Shown piece by piece: positions 4,897-18,681 of a stretch of DNA of 64,000 nucleotides (positions within the stretch are counted from its first letter, which is position 1; the number at the start of each line of letters is the position of its first letter). The position numbers and the translations under genes were made by a program. Below the pieces are notes generated by a model. That model saw only the letters and a list, made by a program, of their open reading frames with translations, had not been told where the DNA came from and ran no database searches. This DNA comes from Escherichia coli (GTDB lineage: Bacteria > Pseudomonadota > Gammaproteobacteria > Enterobacterales > Enterobacteriaceae), in assembly GCF_044324785.1 (NCBI RefSeq), contig NZ_CP172127.1. One strand, written 5' to 3'.

Positions 4897-6258
<1,362 letters not shown>

Positions 6259-6397: not shown

Positions 6398-7537
6398 ATG
6401 AGCGCGGGAAGCCCAAAATTCACCGTTCGCCGCATTGCGGCTTTGTCACTGGTTTCGCTATGGCTGGCAGGCTGTTCTGACACTTCAAATCCACCGGCAC
6501 CGGTCAGCTCCGTTAATGGCAATGCGCCTGCAAATACCAATTCTGGTATGTTGATTACGCCGCCGCCGAAAATGGGGACGACGTCTACAGCGCAGCAACC
6601 GCAAATTCAGCCGGTACAGCAGCCACAAATTCAGGCTACTCAACAACCGCAAATCCAGCCAGTACAGCCAGTAGCTCAGCAGCCGGTACAGATGGAAAAC
6701 GGACGCATCGTCTACAACCGTCAGTATGGGAACATTCCGAAAGGCAGTTATAGCGGCAGTACCTATACAGTGAAAAAAGGCGACACACTTTTCTATATCG
6801 CCTGGATTACTGGCAACGATTTCCGTGACCTTGCTCAGCGCAACAATATTCAGGCACCATACGCGCTGAACGTCGGTCAGACCTTACAGGTGGGTAATGC
6901 TTCCGGTACGCCAATCACTGGCGGAAATGCCATTACCCAGGCCGATGCAGCAGAGCAAGGAGTTGTGATCAAGCCTGCACAAAATTCCACCGTTGCTGTT
7001 GCGTCGCAACCGACAATTACGTATTCTGAGTCTTCGGGTGAACAGAGTGCTAACAAAATGTTGCCGAACAACAAGCCAACTGCGACCACGGTCACAGCGC
7101 CTGTAACGGTACCAACAGCAAGCACAACCGAGCCGACTGTCAGCAGTACATCAACCAGTACGCCTATCTCTACCTGGCGCTGGCCGACTGAGGGTAAAGT
7201 GATCGAAACCTTTGGCGCTTCTGAGGGGGGCAACAAGGGGATTGATATCGCAGGCAGCAAAGGACAGGCAATTATCGCGACCGCAGATGGCCGCGTTGTT
7301 TATGCCGGTAACGCGCTGCGCGGCTACGGTAATCTGATTATCATCAAACATAATGATGATTACCTGAGTGCCTACGCCCATAACGACACAATGCTGGTCC
7401 GGGAACAACAAGAAGTGAAGGCGGGGCAAAAAATAGCAACCATGGGTAGCACCGGAACCAGTTCAACACGCTTGCATTTTGAAATTCGTTACAAGGGGAA
7501 ATCCGTAAACCCGCTGCGTTATTTGCCGCAGCGATAA
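6398..7537 (+). CDS. nlpD: Lipoprotein NlpD (LysM + M23 peptidase-like, amidase activator)
   Basis: 379 aa; lipobox LAGC, Q/P-rich repeat linker, LysM and C-terminal M23 domain; contains rpoS promoters by established knowledge. Confidence 0.93.
6594..6693 (+). repeat. Imperfect in-frame tandem repeats encoding QQPQIQP(V) units inside nlpD
   Basis: Repeated cagc(a/c)gccacaaattcag-like units read directly; protein shows [25 protein letters not shown]. Confidence 0.5.
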
Positions 7538-7599
7538 ATCGGCGGAACCAGGCTTTTGCTTGAATGTTCCGTCAAGGGATCACGGGTAGGAGCCACCTT

Positions 7600-8592
7600 A
7601 TGAGTCAGAATACGCTGAAAGTTCATGATTTAAATGAAGATGCGGAATTTGATGAGAACGGAGTTGAGGTTTTTGACGAAAAGGCCTTAGTAGAAGAGGA
7701 ACCCAGTGATAACGATTTGGCCGAAGAGGAACTGTTATCGCAGGGAGCCACACAGCGTGTGTTGGACGCGACTCAGCTTTACCTTGGTGAGATTGGTTAT
7801 TCACCACTGTTAACGGCCGAAGAAGAAGTTTATTTTGCGCGTCGCGCACTGCGTGGAGATGTTGCCTCCCGCCGCCGGATGATCGAGAGTAACTTGCGTC
7901 TGGTGGTAAAAATTGCCCGCCGTTATGGCAATCGTGGTCTGGCGTTGCTGGACCTTATCGAAGAGGGCAACCTGGGGCTGATCCGCGCGGTTGAGAAGTT
8001 TGACCCGGAACGTGGTTTCCGCTTCTCAACATACGCAACCTGGTGGATTCGCCAGACGATCGAACGGGCGATTATGAACCAAACCCGTACTATTCGTTTG
8101 CCTATTCACATCGTAAAGGAGCTGAACGTTTACCTGCGAACCGCACGCGAGTTGTCCCATAAACTGGACCACGAACCAAGTGCGGAAGAGATCGCAGAGC
8201 AACTGGATAAGCCAGTTGATGACGTCAGCCGTATGCTTCGTCTTAACGAGCGCATTACCTCGGTAGACACCCCGCTAGGTGGTGATTCCGAAAAAGCGTT
8301 GCTGGACATCCTGGCCGATGAAAAAGAGAACGGTCCGGAAGATACCACGCAAGATGACGATATGAAGCAGAGCATCGTCAAATGGCTGTTCGAGCTGAAC
8401 GCCAAACAGCGTGAAGTACTGGCACGTCGATTCGGTTTGCTGGGGTACGAAGCGGCAACACTGGAAGATGTAGGTCGTGAAATTGGCCTCACCCGTGAAC
8501 GTGTTCGCCAGATTCAGGTTGAAGGCCTGCGCCGTTTGCGCGAAATCCTGCAAACGCAGGGGCTGAATATCGAAGCGCTGTTCCGCGAGTAA
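7600..8592 (+). CDS. rpoS: RNA polymerase sigma factor RpoS (sigma-38), full length
   Basis: ORF 7564..8592; start set at ATG 7600 ([11 protein letters not shown]...), 330 aa; codon 33 is GAG (Glu), no internal stop. Confidence 0.95.
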
Positions 8593-8607
8593 GTAAGCAT
8601 CTGTCAG

Positions 8608-8645
8608 AAAGGCCAGTCTCAAGCGAGGCTGGCCTTTTTCTTTTG
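8608..8645 (+). terminator. Rho-independent terminator downstream of rpoS
   Basis: GC-rich hairpin ggccagtctcaagcgaggctggcc followed by ttttt ctttt. Confidence 0.6.
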
Positions 8646-8712
8646 GTTGGGGAGTTGGTGTGTTTTGTCGCCTGGATAAGACACGTCAGTGTCCCACCCG
8701 GCAATCAGCATC

Positions 8713-9120
8713 CTATTTGCTCATCATCTTGCGCACCAGTTGCATAAACAGCTCTTGCTCTTCTCCACTCAAACGCCCCAAAAATTCCTCATCCACACTG
8801 TCACCAATCGGTATCGCCGCAGCAAGTACCTTTTCTCCTTCGGCAGTCAGCCAGACAAAGCGACGCCGCTTGTCAGCGGCGTCATGTTCACGTCTGACTA
8901 AGCCACGATTTTCCATTCTTGCCAACATTTCTGCCAGCGTTGCTTTGGTGCTGACGGCTGCTTCCATCAGTGCCACCTGTTCGATACCAGGTTTATCAGC
9001 AATGGCGCGCATCACCGCGTACTGTGGTTTGGTCAGATCAGGTAACTCGTGCTGCCAGCGAGCCGTATGCTGCTGAAAAAGCTGTCGTAACTGATGGAAC
9101 GCTTTATTTCGTAACGCCAT
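8713..9120 (-). CDS. MarR/SlyA-family transcriptional regulator
   Basis: 135 aa winged-helix MarR-like sequence; divergent from the decarboxylase cluster. Confidence 0.8.
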   Translation of the reverse strand: MALRNKAFHQLRQLFQQHTARWQHELPDLTKPQYAVMRAIADKPGIEQVALMEAAVSTKATLAEMLARMENRGLVRREHDAADKRRRFVWLTAEGEKVLAAAIPIGDSVDEEFLGRLSGEEQELFMQLVRKMMSK

Positions 9121-9234
9121 GTAAACTCCGGGCTAATTCTCTGTCGCTATCATAGCGGTTTTTCAGTGACGAAGAAGATGTTGTTACTTTTCAATCCTTG
9201 CCGCTGTGGAAATGAAGGAGTATGTTAATAATAA

Positions 9235-9250
9235 TGTTCGTATACGAACA
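9235..9250. promoter_or_regulatory. Perfect 16-bp palindrome TGTTCGTATACGAACA, candidate operator in divergent promoter region
   Basis: Read directly; lies 17 bp upstream of the UbiX-like start, between divergent MarR gene and decarboxylase operon; MarR regulators bind palindromes. Confidence 0.4.
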
Positions 9251-9266
9251 ATTAAGAGAGTAAGCA

Positions 9267-9860
9267 ATGAAACTGATCGTCGGGATGACAGGGGCTACCG
9301 GTGCGCCTCTTGGTGTGGCATTACTGCAAGCGCTGCGGGAGATGCCGAATGTCGAGACTCATCTGGTGATGTCGAAGTGGGCGAAAACCACTATTGAACT
9401 GGAAACGCCTTACAGCGCTCGCGATGTTGCCGCCCTCGCAGACTTCAGCCATAACCCGGCGGATCAGGCGGCGACTATCTCTTCCGGCTCCTTTCGTACC
9501 GACGGCATGATCGTTATTCCATGCAGTATGAAAACGCTCGCCGGTATCCGCGCTGGTTACGCCGATGGTCTCGTAGGGCGCGCGGCGGACGTCGTGCTCA
9601 AAGAAGGCCGCAAACTGGTGCTGGTGCCGCGTGAAATGCCGCTTAGCACCATCCATCTCGAAAATATGCTCGCACTTTCGCGCATGGGCGTGGCGATGGT
9701 GCCGCCGATGCCTGCCTTTTATAACCATCCCGAAACGGTAGATGACATTGTCCACCATGTGGTAGCCCGCGTGCTGGATCAATTTGGCCTCGAACATCCT
9801 CACGCCAGGCGCTGGCAAGGGTTGCCGCAGGCCCGGAATTTTTCTCAGGAGAATGAATAA
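9267..9860 (+). CDS. UbiX/Pad1-family flavin prenyltransferase (decarboxylase B subunit)
   Basis: 197 aa, MKLIVGMTGATGA flavoprotein signature; first gene of three-gene cluster. Confidence 0.85.
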   Translation: MKLIVGMTGATGAPLGVALLQALREMPNVETHLVMSKWAKTTIELETPYSARDVAALADFSHNPADQAATISSGSFRTDGMIVIPCSMKTLAGIRAGYADGLVGRAADVVLKEGRKLVLVPREMPLSTIHLENMLALSRMGVAMVPPMPAFYNHPETVDDIVHHVVARVLDQFGLEHPHARRWQGLPQARNFSQENE

Positions 9861-11287
9861 TGGCATTTGATGATTTACGCAGCTTTTTACAGGCGCTTGA
9901 TGACCACGGCCAGTTACTGAAAATCAGCGAAGAGGTGAACGCGGAACCGGATCTGGCAGCCGCTGCCAATGCCACCGGGCGTATCGGCGATGGTGCACCG
10001 GCTCTGTGGTTTGACAATATTCGCGGCTTTACCGATGCCCGCGTGGCGATGAATACCATCGGTTCCTGGCAGAACCACGCGATTTCCCTCGGCCTGCCGC
10101 CAAACACCCCGGTTAAAAAACAGATTGATGAGTTTATCCGCCGCTGGGATAACTTCCCCATTACCCCGGAGCGCCGCGCCAATCCAGCCTGGGCGCAGAA
10201 CACCGTCGATGGCGACGAGATCAACCTGTTCGATATTCTGCCACTGTTTCGTTTAAACGACGGTGATGGCGGTTTCTATCTCGACAAAGCCTGCGTAGTT
10301 TCCCGCGATCCGCTCGACCCGGATAACTTCGGCAAGCAGAACGTCGGCATCTACCGCATGGAAGTGAAGGGCAAGCGTAAGCTCGGCCTGCAACCGGTGC
10401 CGATGCACGATATCGCCCTGCATCTGCATAAAGCAGAAGAGCGCGGTGAAGATCTGCCGATTGCCATCACCCTGGGTAACGATCCGATCATCACCCTGAT
10501 GGGGGCCACGCCGCTGAAATACGATCAGTCTGAGTACGAAATGGCGGGCGCGCTGCGCGAAAGCCCGTACCCGATCGCCACCGCCCCGCTGACCAGTTTT
10601 GATGTGCCGTGGGGCTCGGAAGTGATCCTCGAAGGGGTTATCGAAAGTCGTAAACGTGAGATTGAAGGGCCGTTCGGTGAGTTTACCGGCCACTACTCCG
10701 GCGGGCGTAACATGACCGTGGTGCGTATCGATAAAGTCTCTTACCGTACCAAACCGATTTTCGAATCGCTCTATCTTGGTATGCCGTGGACCGAAATCGA
10801 CTACCTGATGGGGCCTGCCACCTGCGTGCCGCTGTATCAACAACTGAAAGCCGAGTTCCCGGAAGTGCAGGCGGTAAACGCCATGTACACCCACGGCCTG
10901 TTGGCGATTATCTCCACCAAAAAACGCTACGGTGGCTTTGCCCGCGCGGTGGGCCTGCGTGCGATGACCACGCCGCACGGTCTGGGCTACGTGAAGATGG
11001 TGATTATGGTCGATGAAGACGTTGATCCGTTCAACCTGCCGCAGGTGATGTGGGCGCTCTCTTCGAAAGTGAACCCGGCAGGGGATTTAGTGCAGTTGCC
11101 GAATATGTCCGTGCTGGAACTCGACCCCGGCTCAAGCCCGGCCGGTATCACCGACAAGCTGATTATCGACGCTACCACGCCTGTCGCCCCGGACAACCGT
11201 GGTCACTACAGCCAGCCGGTGGTGGATTTACCGGAAACCAAAGCCTGGGCTGAAAAACTGACCGCTATGCTGGCCGCACGTCAATAA
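9860..11287 (+). CDS. UbiD-family reversible (hydroxy)aryl-acid decarboxylase, catalytic C subunit
   Basis: 475 aa UbiD-like; start overlaps UbiX-like stop (TAATG). Confidence 0.85.
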   Translation: MAFDDLRSFLQALDDHGQLLKISEEVNAEPDLAAAANATGRIGDGAPALWFDNIRGFTDARVAMNTIGSWQNHAISLGLPPNTPVKKQIDEFIRRWDNFPITPERRANPAWAQNTVDGDEINLFDILPLFRLNDGDGGFYLDKACVVSRDPLDPDNFGKQNVGIYRMEVKGKRKLGLQPVPMHDIALHLHKAEERGEDLPIAITLGNDPIITLMGATPLKYDQSEYEMAGALRESPYPIATAPLTSFDVPWGSEVILEGVIESRKREIEGPFGEFTGHYSGGRNMTVVRIDKVSYRTKPIFESLYLGMPWTEIDYLMGPATCVPLYQQLKAEFPEVQAVNAMYTHGLLAIISTKKRYGGFARAVGLRAMTTPHGLGYVKMVIMVDEDVDPFNLPQVMWALSSKVNPAGDLVQLPNMSVLELDPGSSPAGITDKLIIDATTPVAPDNRGHYSQPVVDLPETKAWAEKLTAMLAARQ

Positions 11288-11297
11288 GGAGAACAAG

Positions 11298-11534
11298 ATG
11301 ATTTGTCCACGTTGTGCCGATGAACAGATTGAAGTGATGGCGAAATCGCCGGTAAAAGATGTCTGGACGGTCTACCAGTGCCAGCATTGCCTCTATACCT
11401 GGCGCGATACCGAACCGCTGCGCCGCACCAGCCGCGAACATTATCCCGAAGCGTTCCGCATGACGCAGAAAGATATTGATGACGCGCCGATGGTGCCGAG
11501 CATCCCGCCGCTGCTGGCGGTAGATAAGCGTTAA
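11298..11534 (+). CDS. Small zinc-ribbon D subunit of the decarboxylase
   Basis: 78 aa with CPRC...CQHC motif; 10 bp downstream of the UbiD-like gene. Confidence 0.7.
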   Translation: MICPRCADEQIEVMAKSPVKDVWTVYQCQHCLYTWRDTEPLRRTSREHYPEAFRMTQKDIDDAPMVPSIPPLLAVDKR

Positions 11535-11542
11535 TAAAAAGT

Positions 11543-11570
11543 GCCGGGTAGTGGCTTTGCTTTACCCGGC
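11543..11570. terminator. Hairpin between convergent decarboxylase operon and pphB (likely bidirectional terminator)
   Basis: gccgggta-N12-tacccggc inverted repeat flanked by A/T runs. Confidence 0.5.
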
Positions 11571-11574
11571 CTAA

Positions 11575-12237
11575 TTACTTTATTTTATAAAATGACAGCC
11601 GCCCGCTTTTCGGCGATCCGGTATCAATATAAATCTGGTTAGCGAACGTCTGAATGTTATCAAACATCATATGTCCAAATATAAAATAATCAGCGCCGTT
11701 TATTTGTTGTAACTCGCCATTAAGCGATTTCTGCACACGATCAACAGGCCAGAGTAATTCTCTCTCCGCTATTTCTTTGCCAAAGAGATATTCATTCCCC
11801 GGATAATCTGCATGTGCGATGACATATTTTATTATGTCGTTAGTGATTTCAATAATATGTGGAAGGTGATGAAATCTCAGCAACAGATCTATTGCTTCTT
11901 GTTGTTCCGTCTCATTTAATTCAAAGAACCAGTCGCCGCCGCTGGCAAGCCACATATTGCCATCGCCGGTCGCGAACGCATCCAACGCCATCGCTTCATG
12001 GTTGCCTTTAACCGATGTAAACCAGGGCTGGTTTAGCAGGCGCAGCACGTTAAGACTCTCCGGCCCACGATCAATATTATCGCCGACAGAAATAAGTAAG
12101 TCGGTTTCAGGGCAAAAAGAGAGTTGATGTAAGCGAGATTGTAATAATTTATAGTCACCATGAATATCACCAACGGCCCATATATGGCGATAGTGATGGG
12201 CATCAATTATTTGATAGCGAGTGGTAGACATTTGCAT
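11575..12237 (-). CDS. pphB: Serine/threonine protein phosphatase 2
   Basis: 220 aa metallophosphatase with GDIHGD and GNHE motifs; AT-rich codon usage. Confidence 0.88.
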   Translation of the reverse strand: MQMSTTRYQIIDAHHYRHIWAVGDIHGDYKLLQSRLHQLSFCPETDLLISVGDNIDRGPESLNVLRLLNQPWFTSVKGNHEAMALDAFATGDGNMWLASGGDWFFELNETEQQEAIDLLLRFHHLPHIIEITNDIIKYVIAHADYPGNEYLFGKEIAERELLWPVDRVQKSLNGELQQINGADYFIFGHMMFDNIQTFANQIYIDTGSPKSGRLSFYKIK

Positions 12238-12323
12238 AGACTCAAATTTATATGAATGTATTATTATATCAGACCAGGGTATTGAAGTCTCTGGAGTAAT
12301 AAATTACAAAAGGATGTTTTAAA

Positions 12324-12857
12324 ATGCTGAGATATTTCTATGCTTTCCTGTTAGTTTTTTGTTTTTTCACCTCTAATGTACACGCTGCATCTATAGAAGA
12401 AATAAATCGTTTCGAAAAACTTATAACCGAAGGTGATGTAATTGAGTGTACAGCGCATTTCAGTCAGACGGAGAATAACGAAACATACCAACTTAACCTT
12501 TTGGGAATAATGAAAGTTACTTACTCTGGGGAAAGTGAAAAACGCTACCACTCGACACAATATTATCGTTTAGACGGCTTCAAAATTCCCTTTATCCGTT
12601 ATGAGATGGATATCATCGCTACTCATGAAAAATCGAAGTTAAAAGAAGAGATTGTGCCTGACAGCGTACAGGTATTTTATCCTTCAGCACCAGAGCAAGA
12701 AGCGATATTAGCAGAAGCTGTACGGAAAACCGCACCAATGTCTATTGATAATGACGATATCACATTTACGACATTTCCTGATTACCAGGTGAAAGTGAAA
12801 TCCCCCTCTATGCCAGAAGCGATGACTCAGTATTGCCAGGTGCAAACGAAAAAGTAG
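12324..12857 (+). CDS. Hypothetical secreted protein (predicted signal peptide, unknown function)
   Basis: 177 aa; N-terminal hydrophobic segment ending VHA-AS; AAGGA RBS 9 bp upstream; AT-rich; no domain recognised. Confidence 0.6.
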   Translation: MLRYFYAFLLVFCFFTSNVHAASIEEINRFEKLITEGDVIECTAHFSQTENNETYQLNLLGIMKVTYSGESEKRYHSTQYYRLDGFKIPFIRYEMDIIATHEKSKLKEEIVPDSVQVFYPSAPEQEAILAEAVRKTAPMSIDNDDITFTTFPDYQVKVKSPSMPEAMTQYCQVQTKK

Positions 12858-12866
12858 TGAATAAAC

Positions 12867-12889
12867 CCGACGGCATTGTGCCGTCGGGC
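12867..12889. terminator. Hairpin between convergent hypothetical ORF and mutS
   Basis: cccgacggca-ttg-tgccgtcggg perfect inverted repeat. Confidence 0.5.
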
Positions 12890-12898
12890 ATGTCAGGT

Positions 12899-15460
12899 TT
12901 ACACCAGACTCTTCAAGCGATAAATCCATTCCAGCGCCTGACGCGGGGTGAGTGAATCCGGGTCCAGGTTTTCCAGTGCCTCGACCGCAGGCGACGTTTC
13001 TTCTGGCACTGACAGCAAAGACATTTGCGTACCATCCACTTGCGTAGCGGCGGCGTTCGGCGAAATGCTTTCCAGCTCACGCAGTTTTTGCCGTGCGCGC
13101 TTAATAACCTCTTTTGGCACGCCCGCCAGAGCTGCAACCGCCAGGCCGTAGCTTTTGCTCGCCGCGCCATCCTGCACGCTGTGCATAAAGGCAATGGTGT
13201 CGCCGTGCTCCAGTGCATCGAGATGCACGTTGGCGACGCCTTCCATTTTCTCCGGTAACTGGGTCAGCTCGAAATAGTGGGTGGCAAACAGCGTCAACGC
13301 TTTAATCTTATTCGCCAGATTTTCCGCGCACGCCCACGCCAGCGACAGACCATCGTAAGTGGAGGTTCCGCGCCCAATCTCATCCATCAGCACCAGACTG
13401 TACTCGGTGGCGTTATGCAGAATATTGGCGGTTTCGGTCATCTCCACCATAAAGGTTGAACGCCCGGATGCCAGATCATCCGCTGCCCCTACGCGGGTAA
13501 AGATGCGATCGATAGGTCCAATCTCGACTTTTTGTGCCGGTACATAGCTGCCGATGTAGGCCATCAGCGCAATCAGTGCGGTCTGGCGCATATAGGTACT
13601 TTTACCGCCCATATTCGGACCGGTAATGATCAACATGCGACGCTGCGGCGACAGGTTCAGCGGGTTGGCGATAAATGGCTCGTTTAGTACCTGTTCAACC
13701 ACCGGATGGCGGCCTTCGGTGATGCGAATACCCGGTTTATCAATGAAGGTCGGGCAGGTGTAGTTCAGGGTATAGGCCCGTTCCGCCAGGTTAACCAGCA
13801 CATCAAGTTCCGCCAGCGCGCTCGCGCTCTGTTGCAACGCTTCCAGATGCGGCAACAGCAGGTCGAACAGCTCTTCATAAAGTTGTTTTTCCAGTGCCAG
13901 TGCTTTGCCTTTTGAGGTGAGAACTTTATCTTCGTACTCTTTTAGCTCTGGAATGATGTAGCGCTCGGCGTTTTTCAGCGTCTGGCGACGCATGTAGTTG
14001 ATGGGTGCCAGATGGCTTTGTCCACGGCTGATCTGAATGTAATAACCATGAACCGCGTTAAAGCCGACTTTCAGCGTGTCCAGGCCAGTACGTTCACGCT
14101 CGCGGACTTCCAGACGCTCCAGATAATCGGTCGCGCCATCAGCCAGCGCGCGCCACTCATCCAGCTCTTCGTTATAGCCCGGTGCGATAACACCACCGTC
14201 GCGTACCAGCACTGGCGGTGTGTCGATGATTGCTCGCTCCAGCAGATCGCGCAGCTCGGCAAACTCGCCCATTTTTTCACGCAGCGCCTGTACCGGAGCG
14301 CTATCGACATTTTCTAATAGCGCACGCAGCTCCGGCAGTTGCTGGAAAGCGTGACGCATACGGGCCAGATCGCGTGGGCGAGCAGTTCGTAAAGCCAGAC
14401 GCGCCAGAATACGTTCCAGGTCGCCGACCTGACGCAGTACCGGCTGCAGCTCGGCGGTGAAATCCTGCAATGCGCCAATAGTTTGCTGGCGCTCAAGCAA
14501 CACGCGGGTATCGCGCACTGGCATATGCAGCCAGCGTTTCAGCATACGGCTGCCCATCGGCGTGACGGTGCAGTCGAGCACAGAAGCCAGCGTATTTTCC
14601 GCACCACCCGCCAGATTCTGGGTGATTTCCAGATTACGACGCGTCGCGGCATCCATAATGATGCTGTCCTGCTCACGTTCCATAGTGATAGAACGAATAT
14701 GCGGCAGAGTCGTACGTTGGGTATCTTTCGCATACTGCAACAGACAACCGGCAGCACAAAGTCCGCGCGGCGCGTTCTCGACGCCAAAACCGACCAGATC
14801 GCGGGTCCCAAATTGCAGATTCAACTGCTGGCGCGCGGTGTCGATTTCAAACTCCCACAGCGGGCGACGGCGCAGGCCGCGACGGCCTTCAATTAACGAC
14901 ATTTCAGCAAAATCTTCTGCATATAGCAGTTCCGCCGGATTAGTGCGTTGCAGTTCTGCCGCCATCGTTTCCCGGTCAGCCGGTTCGCTCAGGCGAAAAC
15001 GACCGGAACTGATATCCAGCGTCGCGTAGCCGAAACCTTTACTGTCCTGCCAGATAGCCGCCAGCAGATTGTCCTGGCGCTCTTGTAACAGGGCTTCATC
15101 GCTGATGGTGCCTGGCGTAACGATACGCACAACTTTGCGCTCAACTGGACCTTTGCTGGTCGCCGGATCGCCAATTTGTTCGCAGATGGCAACGGACTCG
15201 CCCTGATTCACCAGTTTGGCGAGGTAGTTTTCCACCGCATGGTAGGGGATCCCCGCCATCGGGATCGGCTCTCCCGCGGAAGCACCGCGTTTGGTCAGTG
15301 AAATATCCAGCAGCTGCGACGCGCGTTTTGCGTCGTCATAAAACAGTTCATAAAAATCACCCATCCGGTAAAACAGCAGGATCTCGGGATGCTGGGCTTT
15401 CAGCTTGAGATACTGCTGCATCATTGGCGTATGGGCATCGAAATTTTCTATTGCACTCAT
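12899..15460 (-). CDS. mutS: DNA mismatch repair protein MutS
   Basis: 853 aa; Walker [10 protein letters not shown]; full-length match to MutS. Confidence 0.97.
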
Positions 15461-15718
15461 GGGGTTATGTCCGGTTCCCTGATATTAAATGGGGTGTGAT
15501 GGTTTTTATTTTCGTTGTAATCACATAAGGCGCACATGATACCGGAGTTAATCATTTCAGGGGAAGAAGCGAACGGCGAGTTCTTGATGGTGATTCCGGG
15601 AAAGATGCTGTTTTGCAGCTTTTGCGTGATGCTTATGAAGCAAGTACGCAAAATTGTATCAGTTGGCGAACCCTTCTTCTTTAGAGTCATAGTGCCCTTT
15701 AAGATTAAGTTGTAATAT

Positions 15719-15729
15719 AAATGCATCTT
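15719..15729. promoter_or_regulatory. Candidate NsrR half-site (AAATGCATCTT) upstream of ygbA
   Basis: Exact match to one 11-bp half of the NsrR consensus, 17 bp upstream of ygbA ATG; partner half is degenerate. Confidence 0.35.
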
Positions 15730-15746
15730 AATGAGGTGGAGGCAGC

Positions 15747-16091
15747 ATGTCCGGCAAGCGTATCTCTCGTGAAAAACTGACGATTAAAAAAATGATCGAT
15801 CTTTATCAAGCGAAATGCCCGCAGGCGTCAGCGGAGCCGTCGCATTACGACGCGCTGTTTGCCTACGCGCAAAAGCGGCTGGATAAATGTGTGTTCGGCG
15901 AAGAGAAACCAGCCTGTAAGCAGTGTCCGGTGCACTGTTACCAGCCTGCAAAGCGTGAAGAGATGAAACAGATTATGCGTTGGGCCGGGCCGAGAATGCT
16001 GTGGCGTCATCCGATCTTAACCGTGCGTCATCTCATCGATGACAAGCGTCCGGTGCCGGAGTTGCCAGAAAAATATCGTCCAAAGAAATAA
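15747..16091 (+). CDS. ygbA: YgbA, Cys-rich nitrosative-stress-induced protein
   Basis: 114 aa with CPQ...CKQCPVHC cysteine motif; divergent from mutS. Confidence 0.8.
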   Translation: MSGKRISREKLTIKKMIDLYQAKCPQASAEPSHYDALFAYAQKRLDKCVFGEEKPACKQCPVHCYQPAKREEMKQIMRWAGPRMLWRHPILTVRHLIDDKRPVPELPEKYRPKK

Positions 16092-16129
16092 ATCTGCCGG
16101 AGAGCCATACTCTCCGGCAAATAAGGCGT

Positions 16130-16558
16130 TTACGCTTTGGTGGCAATCAGGATGGCTGATGCTTTGATCAATGCAATAACGCGTGAGCCAGTGGTGAGTT
16201 TCATTTCATCCTGACTTTCATTTGTTACCACTGCCACAATTTCAAAACCCGCATCCGTTTTGATATGGACAGTGGCGTTCACTGCGCCTTCGGTGATTGT
16301 CGACACGCTGCCAGCAAACTGGTTGCGAGCAGAGAATTTCAGTCCACAGTCTTCCGTTGCCAGCGTTACCCACGGGGCTTTAATCAGGGCAATCGCTTCT
16401 TTCCCTTTCGCCAGACCCAGCGCTTGCTGGCTGCTGTGAGTCACAATTGCCACCAGCTTTGCACCACCTGCCAGCGTCAGTTCTACTTCATCATTCACAG
16501 CGCCCATTGCTACTGCGCTAACTGTTCCGGTTAATTGATTTCTTGCTGAAACTGCCAT
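16130..16558 (-). CDS. Molbindin: tandem TOBE (Mop) domain molybdate/tungstate-binding protein
   Basis: ORF 16130..16597; start set at ATG 16558 with AAGGAGG RBS; two SARNQ(L/F)-type TOBE repeats; 45 bp downstream of fhlA on same strand. Confidence 0.75.
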   Translation of the reverse strand: MAVSARNQLTGTVSAVAMGAVNDEVELTLAGGAKLVAIVTHSSQQALGLAKGKEAIALIKAPWVTLATEDCGLKFSARNQFAGSVSTITEGAVNATVHIKTDAGFEIVAVVTNESQDEMKLTTGSRVIALIKASAILIATKA

Positions 16559-16602
16559 ACTGCCTCCTTTCATTGAATGTTGATCGAGTATAACCACATC
16601 TG

Positions 16603-18681
16603 TTAAATCAATGCCGATTTATCAATTCCCAGTCGCTTCATCCGTGACAGCAGAGTCGTGCGTTTCAGCCCCAGACGTTGCGCAGCGCCTTTAGGCCCGG
16701 CAACCACGCCGTTAGTTTCTTTCAGCACGCGAACAATCAACTGATATTCATCTTCGCCCTCCTGAGCGACAACCGTTGCGGCAGGCGGCGTTTCTGGTTC
16801 CGGTAAAACAATATCTGGCAATGACAGCTGCAGCACGTTGCCGCGTGTCAGCAATACCGCGCGCTCAATGACGTTTTCCAGTTCGCGCACGTTACCCGGC
16901 CACTCCATGTTGCTCAAGGTGCGCAACGTCTCGGCAGGAATGCTGTCGATATTGCGCCCCAGACGACGGGCAATTTTGAAGGTAAAGGATTTCGCCAGCA
17001 GCGGAATATCTTCCGGACGCTCGCGCAGGGGCGGCAGGTGGATCGGGAATACGTTCAGGCGGTAATAGAGATCGCTACGGAACTCGCGATCGGCGACCAT
17101 TTTTTTCAGATCGCGGTTAGTCGCGGCAATTAAACGCACGTCCGTCTGAATGATTTTGTTGCTGCCGAGACGTTCAAACTCTTGTTCCTGCAATACACGC
17201 AGCAACTTCGGCTGTAACTCCAGTGGCATATCACCCACTTCGTCGAGGAACAGGGAGCTTTTATCCGCCAGTTCAAAACGACCAATGCGCTGGGCGCTGG
17301 CACCGGTAAAAGCCCCACGCTCATGACCAAACAGATCGCTCTCCAGCAATCCGGCAGGCATCGCCGCGCAGTTCATTTTTACCATGCGGCGATTATTACG
17401 CCCACTGAGATTATGGATCGCGCGGGCAATCAGCTCTTTACCTGTACCAGTTTCACCGAGAATCAGCACGGTACTGTCACTTTGCGCCACCATTTCAACT
17501 TGTTTAAGTACGCTGTACATGGCTTCGCTGCGGCCAATAATCTCGCCAAATTCACTATCAACATTGTTGAGCTGCTCGGTCAGGGCGAGGTTTTCATCAA
17601 CCAGCCGTTCTTTCAGACGATGAATTTCCTGATAGGCGAGGGCGTTATCGACAGCGATTGCCACACGTTCGGCAATCTGGCGCAGTAAATTCAGATTGGT
17701 AGTGGTAAAGACTTTCTCTTCGCATTGCGCCAGTTTCAGTACGCCCAGCATGGTGTCGCCAGACATCAGCGGTAACAGGCACAAGGTTTGAATCTGGTTG
17801 CCCCAGGTGTTGAACAACATGCGTTCATAGGGGGCTAAATCGTCCCGCTCGTGGAGATTAATCAACAGCATCTCTTTACTTTTGAAGACGCGTTCGGTGA
17901 GGGTTCCGGCTTCATCGACTTCGCTCTGTTCGTGAGCGGGATGCTGTTTATCAAGATAGTGAGTGGAGTAGATGTTGAGTTTGTTTTTACGGTGGCTGCG
18001 TAAGACGATGCTGATATCGTCAATGTCGAAGTAGTAGTGGATTTCTTTGGCGACTTCGCTGACCAGTTCGTCCATATCCAGGCGGGAAAGCACCGCGTTG
18101 GTAATGGCAACCAGGATGCGGAAGTTATCGCGCTCCCGGCATAACAACTCATAGTCGACATTGTTGACGACGCGGCTCTGGATTTGTTCGGTGACGACAG
18201 AAACGATCTGCGTAAATGTTTGCAGACGATTGAACTCTTTTTCGCTCCAGGGGCGATCGTCATAACGAATAAATTCACAGCCACCAAAAATATGCCCTTC
18301 CGCCGCCAGTGGCATCAGGCAATAGTGACCAAATTTGGGGTATAGCCCACCTGCGGCCAGCTGCGGCCAGGTTTCACAAAATTCTTCGTAACTGCAATGC
18401 AGCGTATCAGGGCGCGACAAAATGCTGCGTACCGGACCGTGTGCCAGAACAGTTTCGTCTTCATATTTAATGGGGGTGTCTTTTTCACGCGATGCGTAAT
18501 AAGACGCACGTTGAGTCTGCGCTTGCCACAACACAATAGCCGCGTTGTCGGCGAGCGCAGAACGCTTTACCAGTTGCGAAAGAGCCTCACACAGCGAGGC
18601 CAGATCGGGCTGCTGCAATAGTGTCCGAGTGATGTCGAACAACCCTTGTTGTCCGAGATCACTCATCGGTGTATATGACAT
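16603..18681 (-). CDS. fhlA: Formate hydrogenlyase transcriptional activator (sigma-54 dependent)
   Basis: ORF 16603..18717; start set at MSYTPMSDLG (692 aa); GAF domains, AAA+ [15 protein letters not shown]-terminal HTH. Confidence 0.95.
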   Translation of the reverse strand: MSYTPMSDLGQQGLFDITRTLLQQPDLASLCEALSQLVKRSALADNAAIVLWQAQTQRASYYASREKDTPIKYEDETVLAHGPVRSILSRPDTLHCSYEEFCETWPQLAAGGLYPKFGHYCLMPLAAEGHIFGGCEFIRYDDRPWSEKEFNRLQTFTQIVSVVTEQIQSRVVNNVDYELLCRERDNFRILVAITNAVLSRLDMDELVSEVAKEIHYYFDIDDISIVLRSHRKNKLNIYSTHYLDKQHPAHEQSEVDEAGTLTERVFKSKEMLLINLHERDDLAPYERMLFNTWGNQIQTLCLLPLMSGDTMLGVLKLAQCEEKVFTTTNLNLLRQIAERVAIAVDNALAYQEIHRLKERLVDENLALTEQLNNVDSEFGEIIGRSEAMYSVLKQVEMVAQSDSTVLILGETGTGKELIARAIHNLSGRNNRRMVKMNCAAMPAGLLESDLFGHERGAFTGASAQRIGRFELADKSSLFLDEVGDMPLELQPKLLRVLQEQEFERLGSNKIIQTDVRLIAATNRDLKKMVADREFRSDLYYRLNVFPIHLPPLRERPEDIPLLAKSFTFKIARRLGRNIDSIPAETLRTLSNMEWPGNVRELENVIERAVLLTRGNVLQLSLPDIVLPEPETPPAATVVAQEGEDEYQLIVRVLKETNGVVAGPKGAAQRLGLKRTTLLSRMKRLGIDKSALI

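Follow-up and report, generated by a model that had tools for sequence, protein, structure and literature searches.

The window analysed here is a 64,000-nucleotide stretch of Escherichia coli DNA (NCBI RefSeq contig NZ_CP172127.1). At 16130..16558, on the minus strand, it carries the coding sequence of a ModG-like di-Mop/TOBE molbindin of 142 amino acids, which we refer to as mop. The protein is RefSeq WP_000301062.1 in E. coli strain N3, and the gene is the orthologue of c3292 in strain CFT073. Immediately upstream on the same strand lies fhlA (16603..18681), which encodes the sigma-54 activator of formate hydrogenlyase (FHL), and onward from fhlA the window continues with hypEDCBA and then hyc. 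The downstream neighbour is ygbA (15747..16091, plus strand), a gene of the YgbA_NO family that converges on mop, followed by mutS on the minus strand (12899-15460). The RefSeq/PGAP annotation mislabels fhlA as 'flhA', a symbol that belongs to a flagellar export gene, and calls its product 'formate hydrogenlyase transcriptional activator FlhA'. Between mutS and ygbA there is a 59-aa ORF (15536-15715, plus strand) that RefSeq lists as a hypothetical protein; it measures 180 nt here and in N3, and 135 nt in a K-12-like genome.

The open reading frame delimited mechanically runs from 16130 to 16597 on the minus strand and would encode 155 aa from a GTG. We place the biological start at the ATG at 16558, because it is preceded by an AAGGAGG ribosome-binding site (16563..16569, minus strand, 4 nt 5' of the ATG), because RefSeq annotates the same 429-nt CDS in strain N3, which is 99.2% identical to the window over 9 kb, and because intact orthologues share this start. 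All the intact orthologues recovered are exactly 142 aa long and begin M[AST]VSARNQL, and the GGAGG of the ribosome-binding site is kept in nearly all of them. The start, length and ribosome-binding site given in an earlier note on this DNA, made from the sequence alone, are therefore upheld. So is the strand shared with fhlA, but the distance of 45 bp needs a small correction: the fhlA stop codon occupies 16603-16605, which leaves a spacer of 44 nt (16559..16602, minus strand). The composition of mop is unremarkable overall, with a GC content of 50.3% and a GC3 of 0.47, compared with 0.58 for fhlA.

Domain searches resolve the protein into two tandem Mop/TOBE domains, the similarity that the earlier note had read from the translation. 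The Pfam TOBE family (PF03459) matches in two stretches with an E-value of 8.8e-35 and is the only domain found, and the NCBIfam 'Mop' molybdenum-pterin-binding model TIGR00638 likewise matches in two stretches (E 4.1e-42; 142 bits against a cutoff of 55). In a phmmer comparison the protein aligned end to end with Azotobacter vinelandii ModG (1H9J; residues 1-140, E 5e-33). The next matches were the DiMop domain of E. coli ModE, at 1e-15, and then single-domain Mop and tungbindin proteins. An AlphaFold2 model based on 30 orthologues has a pLDDT of 96.5, and Foldseek superposes it on ModG with a TM score of 0.95, an rmsd of 1.3 Å and 48% identity.

In the Mop/TOBE fold, the type-1 oxyanion site lies on the three-fold axis and is formed by the Ala20-Val21-Asn22 backbone, and the type-2 site of Tub, Mop and ModE is formed by Ser4, Arg6, Lys60 and Ala61 together with Ser40 of the adjacent subunit, according to the tungbindin study of 2025 (PMC11980592). 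Using these published roles and the alignments with ModG and ModE, we assign the type-2 positions of the first domain to S4, R6, T40, S43, K60 and A61, and those of the second, at an offset of 72, to S76, R78, T112, S115, K132 and A133. The type-1 loops read G-A-V-N in both domains (G19-A20-V21-N22 and G91-A92-V93-N94) and are conserved. Across the 30 orthologues, which reach as far as Burkholderiales and a Fibrobacteres MAG, the ligand positions are invariant or nearly so. Since ModG shares both sets of ligands, and ModE lacks the A-V-N loops and the second-domain ligands, we classify the predicted product as a ModG-type storage or buffer molbindin, neither a truncated ModE nor a 'transporter'.

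Two other assignments were tried and rejected. As a ModE transcription factor the protein falls short, since its alignment to the 263-position ModE model is confined to positions 124-261 and its 88 bits are far under the cutoff of 369. As a ModC or other ABC transporter component, it matches only the C-terminal TOBE part (approximately 280-352) of the ModC and WtpC models, far below their cutoffs, and the Pfam search gave no match to ABC_tran in the protein.

Both the gene and its polymorphism are already known, annotated and published, and mop is not an overlooked gene. The exact protein sequence occurs on at least 1000 contigs, under the names 'TOBE domain-containing protein', 'transporter', 'molybdopterin-binding protein' and 'molybdenum-pterin-binding protein', and RefSeq uses the first of these labels in about 1900 complete E. 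coli genomes. Ewers et al. 2014 (PMC4209514) ran a c3292-mutS PCR and reported fhlA-mutS amplicons of 1673 bp for CFT073 and 1208 bp for MG1655 and EDL933, the long form occurring only in their 'pattern III' strains. Their c3292 primer matches the window exactly at 16515-16533. In silico, the window yields a c3292-mutS product of 1121 bp and an fhlA-mutS product of 1674 bp, against the published 1673 bp for CFT073 and 1208 bp for MG1655; c3292 is the same gene as mop, with no difference in the gene itself. The gene between fhlA and ygbA was noted again by Lerminiaux et al. in 2020 (PMC7232297), where it was mislabelled 'modE'. The earlier note had allowed that the ORF might prove to be annotated and characterised in reference genomes. 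Annotated it is, but the literature that we searched holds no functional study of the protein (binding, expression or mutant) in any enterobacterium, although an older study in a subscription journal may have been missed.

The same published primers describe the surroundings of the locus. The window has a short, O157-like mutS-rpoS region (7379-15432) with a slyA-nlpD product of 1394 bp, and in-silico PCR found no o454, o388, f265 or o347 sites. Its combination with a CFT073-type fhlA-mutS interval of 1674 bp falls outside the scheme of Ewers et al. 2014. The mutS-yclC product measures 1880 bp instead of 1318 bp, and a 177-aa ORF between pphB and mutS (12324-12857, plus strand; a 'hypothetical protein' in N3, with no Pfam match) probably accounts for the extra ~560 bp. 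The nlpD gene is intact in the window (6398-7537, plus strand, 379 aa) and is flagged as frameshifted in the near-identical N3 (L056 6444-7537).

The earlier note knew of no named gene at this position in the K-12 annotation and proposed an alignment of the fhlA-ygbA interval to see whether the ORF is present, frameshifted or absent there. It is wholly absent from K-12-type genomes, through a clean deletion of about 470 bp rather than a frameshift. The missing segment comprises mop and its leader and corresponds roughly to 16128..16600 of the window; divergence of the flanks makes its boundaries imprecise by a few bases. In K-12-type genomes the gap between fhlA and ygbA is 36 nt and contains only a hairpin and no remnant of mop. 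This hairpin is homologous to the one that follows mop in the window and carries a compensatory change in the stem (GCCGGAGAG/CTCTCCGGC in the window versus GCCGGACAG/CTGTCCGGC in K-12). The flanks adjoining the indel are more diverged than the remaining region, and the 3' end of ygbA differs by haplotype (16040-16128 versus L002 ~1880-1940), with the protein ending ...RPKK here and ...RPKKPHE in K-12 (114 versus 117 aa).

Among 5426 complete E. coli genomes, the 473-nt mop segment is found in 1892, always as a single chromosomal copy that is partial in only three, and 3507 give a full-length match to a 161-nt probe for the K-12-type ygbA-fhlA junction; the two alleles jointly cover 5399 genomes. 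Strains 042, O127:H6 (E2348/69), 536, APEC O18 and 81009 carry the gene, and K-12/C600, O104:H4 and O157:H7 are without it. We read this pattern as one deletion of about 470 bp in the lineage that includes K-12, O157:H7 and O104:H4. Judged from a few named strains and the phylogroups to which we take them to belong, the distribution agrees with one loss along the branch to groups A/B1/C/E.

To place the gene in a wider context, we scanned one genome per species, which gave 49 mop loci, and searched these by tblastn with HypE, FhlA, YgbA and MutS from the window. The order hypE-fhlA-mop recurs in about 38 species of at least 11 genera: in E. albertii, a cryptic Escherichia clade, seven Citrobacter species and Pseudocitrobacter; in Raoultella, Klebsiella spallanzanii, K. 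indica and several 'Enterobacter' species; and in Pluralibacter, Kluyvera, Yokenella, Lelliottia and Kosakonia. An insertion of sitABCD separates mop from ygbA in Raoultella and Klebsiella. Because this order is common to outgroup species and genera, we take the position after fhlA, at the 3' end of the hyp-fhlA cluster, to be ancestral for Enterobacteriaceae.

The gene is under strong purifying selection. Comparison with E. albertii gives a dS of 0.37 and a dN of 0.010, with flanks that are about 91% identical, and dN/dS against orthologues in other genera lies between 0.03 and 0.11, which puts the ORF far beyond chance. These data bear on the possibility that mop serves no present function in E. 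coli and is either an insertion gained by horizontal transfer or a remnant in decay. Such a reading would suit the patchy distribution in the species (35% of complete genomes), the somewhat low GC3 relative to fhlA, and the location in the fhlA-mutS interval, a known hotspot of gain and loss (PMC7232297). Against it, position and orientation are the same in outgroup species and genera, divergence tracks that of the flanks and appears vertical in character, length is fixed and partial copies are rare, and there are no mobile-element features flanking the gene in the window. We rejected horizontal acquisition on synteny, divergence and composition, and on the selection data a non-functional remnant is effectively excluded; of the readings considered here, this is the one to which we give almost no weight.

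The association with fhlA is old, but it is not obligatory. In Phytobacter and in Kosakonia sp. S29 (L039, L044 and L051, ~5869-6000), fhlA has been deleted and mop is intact behind a short remnant of the fhlA C-terminus, and in Raoultella sp. BIGb0138 (L018, ~5950-6018) and an Enterobacter sp. (L034) the hyp genes have gone as well. In Serratia, Cedecea and Edwardsiella, mop stands alone among genes with no link to molybdenum or hydrogen metabolism. Some Salmonella enterica (L003 5939-6433; L004 3558-4453) have mop at another locus, by MsrPQ-like, TetR, CaiF/GrlA and fimbrial usher genes. The segment that moved, about 490 bp, consists of mop with its leader and ~15 nt from the end of fhlA, and its homology to Citrobacter extends from 62 nt upstream of the ATG to the stop codon. 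It is nearly the same unit as the one deleted in K-12, and in one assembly an IS21 IstB fragment adjoins it.

This record also weighs on a more specific proposal, in which mop would be a regulatory accessory that senses molybdate for the FHL regulon. Its molybdate-loaded form would act on FhlA, or on ModE by way of the homologous DiMop domain, and so make fdhF and hyc expression track molybdenum. The adjacency to fhlA across Enterobacteriaceae and the lack of a terminator between the two genes favour it, as does the likeness of mop to the ModE DiMop domain (34-36% identity, and structurally close). In K-12, transcription of fdhF and hyc requires molybdate, partly through ModE. Yet K-12 shows this molybdenum-dependent regulation without mop. 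Moreover, mop is kept where fhlA has been deleted (Phytobacter, Raoultella and Enterobacter, as above), has moved in Salmonella (L003) and stands alone in three further genera, while the protein has no additional interaction domain and possesses the type-1 loops of storage-type molbindins that ModE lacks. We regard a regulatory role of this kind as improbable.

How mop is expressed can be suggested from the arrangement of the locus. It lies on the same strand as hyp and fhlA after a short gap; in the window, nothing resembling a terminator hairpin separates fhlA from mop, and a strong terminator-like hairpin (16092..16122, minus strand; 14 pairs and a T run) directly follows the mop stop codon, between the convergent mop and ygbA. 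This is the layout expected of the last gene in the hyp-fhlA unit, and it makes it likely that transcripts from the hyp promoters read through fhlA into mop. Lelliottia sp. (L037, just upstream of 6001) looks different: a GC-rich hairpin with a T run comes after the fhlA stop, and a TATAAA box then precedes mop, which there looks transcriptionally separate from fhlA.

Besides read-through, mop is probably also transcribed from its own weak promoter, situated in the spacer and the 3' end of fhlA, and the hairpin in Lelliottia is one of the comparative observations that point this way. Comparison of orthologues reveals a single conserved element in the spacer apart from the ribosome-binding site, a box of the form G(G/C)TATA(C/A)(T/A) located 25-30 nt 5' of the ATG. 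The copy in the window, TATACT at 16587-16592, is a candidate -10 element, and the box is also present in the relocated Salmonella gene. In three independent cases of fhlA loss, the DNA retained upstream of mop begins within the last 15-60 nt of fhlA; the remnant reads '...KKMGMDKQAMT' and stop in Phytobacter and '...LLSRMKRLGINKNELV' and stop in Raoultella sp. BIGb0138, and the third case is the relocated Salmonella copy. The promoter is one that we infer only, because a sigma-70 consensus scan upstream of mop returned no promoter-like site and the -35 region is poor by eye.

Other regulatory elements were sought in the same region. A sigma-54 promoter of the FhlA type (-24/-12) at the TGGC..TATACT box was rejected by eye, as there is no GC at -12. 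Taking the ModE operator consensus to be TATAT-N7-TAYAT, inspection by eye found no conserved operator-like palindrome upstream of mop. Conservation extends to the left half alone; a weak second half-site occurs in the window and one Citrobacter but not in other genera, and we claim no ModE site. An Rfam search covering 15400-16900 (E<=1) returned no hit, and so no riboswitch or sRNA for the mop leader or 3' region.

Taken together, we think it likely that mop encodes a ModG-type molbindin, ancestral to the family and lost through one ~470-bp deletion in the E. coli lineage that includes K-12, whose most probable role is to buffer or store molybdenum for molybdenum-cofactor (Moco) synthesis. 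The domain make-up, fold, conservation of ligand positions, purifying selection, synteny and deletion polymorphism are established here; oxyanion binding, oligomeric state, transcription pattern and physiological role are put forward in conditional terms. The protein would be small and cytoplasmic and would bind molybdate, and probably tungstate too. ModG is a trimer that binds eight molybdate or tungstate oxyanions, and by analogy with it we infer for mop a small oligomer with oxyanion sites formed between its subunits. Expressed by read-through from fhlA and from its own weak promoter, the protein would most likely buffer or store cytoplasmic molybdate for the cofactor that serves FdhH and other molybdoenzymes.

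Whether the anion is chiefly molybdate cannot be read from the sequence, which does not distinguish it from tungstate. The protein could instead be a tungstate binder resembling TudG or Tub, which either sequesters tungsten against mis-metallation of molybdoenzymes or stores it. To our knowledge, however, Enterobacteriaceae have no established tungstoenzymes and no TupABC, and ModG, the closest characterised homologue, is a molybdate protein. In favour of tungstate, the ligand set is the same as that of Eubacterium limosum Tub, which binds tungsten and molybdenum equally in vitro and stores tungsten in vivo, and the TudG/ModG architecture is common in gut species predicted to use tungsten (PMC11980592). 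On balance we hold a primarily tungstate-directed role to be slightly less probable even than the regulatory one discussed above, and prefer molybdenum buffering or storage.

Within that preferred reading, a specific part for mop in formate hydrogenlyase is plausible, and the earlier note had suggested as much from the neighbouring gene. Such a tie is reasonable, given the age of the synteny with fhlA and the fact that FdhH is a molybdoenzyme. It is weakened by the retention of mop without fhlA or hyp, by its solitary occurrence in Serratia, Cedecea and Edwardsiella, and by the FHL proficiency of K-12 without it. Indeed, K-12 and the two thirds of sequenced E. coli that lack mop make active FdhH and other molybdoenzymes, so that the gene is dispensable.

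In itself, mop is an ordinary accessory gene that is already annotated. Its interest lies in the fact that K-12 underlies nearly all work on FHL and on molybdate regulation, yet lacks a strongly conserved molbindin that sits beside fhlA in most Enterobacteriaceae and that roughly one in three sequenced E. coli have kept, many extraintestinal pathogens among them. Should the protein serve to buffer or store molybdenum, it could affect molybdoenzyme activity under molybdenum scarcity, for instance in the inflamed gut or in urine, as well as hydrogen production and sensitivity to tungstate, an anion that has been proposed for microbiota editing. A stronger version, which we would put forward only as a long shot, is that mop is a working part of enterobacterial molybdenum homeostasis and sets the flow of molybdate to Moco synthesis or ModE under anaerobic, formate-inducing conditions. 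If that were true, the textbook account of molybdate control of fdhF, hyc and mod in K-12 would describe a lineage that is missing one component, and measurable differences in FHL activity, molybdenum storage or tungstate tolerance would be expected of strains with mop (B2/D/F-type ExPEC, Nissle-like strains, Citrobacter, Raoultella and others). The gene also offers a clean natural presence/absence pair for the function of ModG-type molbindins outside nitrogen fixers.

Among known systems, the best match for mop is ModG of A. vinelandii (PDB 1H9J/1H9K/1H9M; Delarbre et al. 2001), which likewise consists of two tandem Mop domains in about 140 aa and nothing else. The two share the type-1 (G-A-V-N) and type-2 (S-x-R, T-x-x-S, K-A) motifs in both domains, and differ at position 115, which is Ser in the mop protein and Ala in ModG. 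The genomic settings are not alike. In A. vinelandii, modG is located among the mod genes for transport and regulation and is involved in molybdenum homeostasis and cofactor supply to nitrogenase; Mop and Tub proteins act as stores (PMC11980592). By contrast, mop has no linkage to mod genes, its neighbours being fhlA and ygbA, and it follows fhlA/hyp in diazotrophic and non-diazotrophic enterics alike.

The DiMop domain of E. coli ModE (PDB 1H9R/1H9S/1O7L/1B9M) has the same two-TOBE fold (34-36% identity, TM score of about 0.89) and the same domain-1 ligand residues. ModE, however, carries an N-terminal winged-helix DNA-binding domain that the mop protein lacks, and the ligand motifs that mop retains are missing from both type-1 loops and from the second Mop domain of ModE. 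For these reasons 'modE' and 'molybdate transport system regulatory protein' are misnomers for mop. The single-domain molbindins include Mop (Clostridium pasteurianum MopII, 1GUG; Sporomusa ovata, 1FR3; and Haemophilus influenzae) and the tungbindin Tub of E. limosum (9BEB). Each half of the mop protein corresponds to one such domain, with about 40% identity to Tub and a shared numbering of S4, R6, A20-V21-N22, T/S40, K60 and A61. These proteins are about 70 aa long and form hexamers; mop fuses two domains, so a trimer would be the equivalent assembly, as in ModG.
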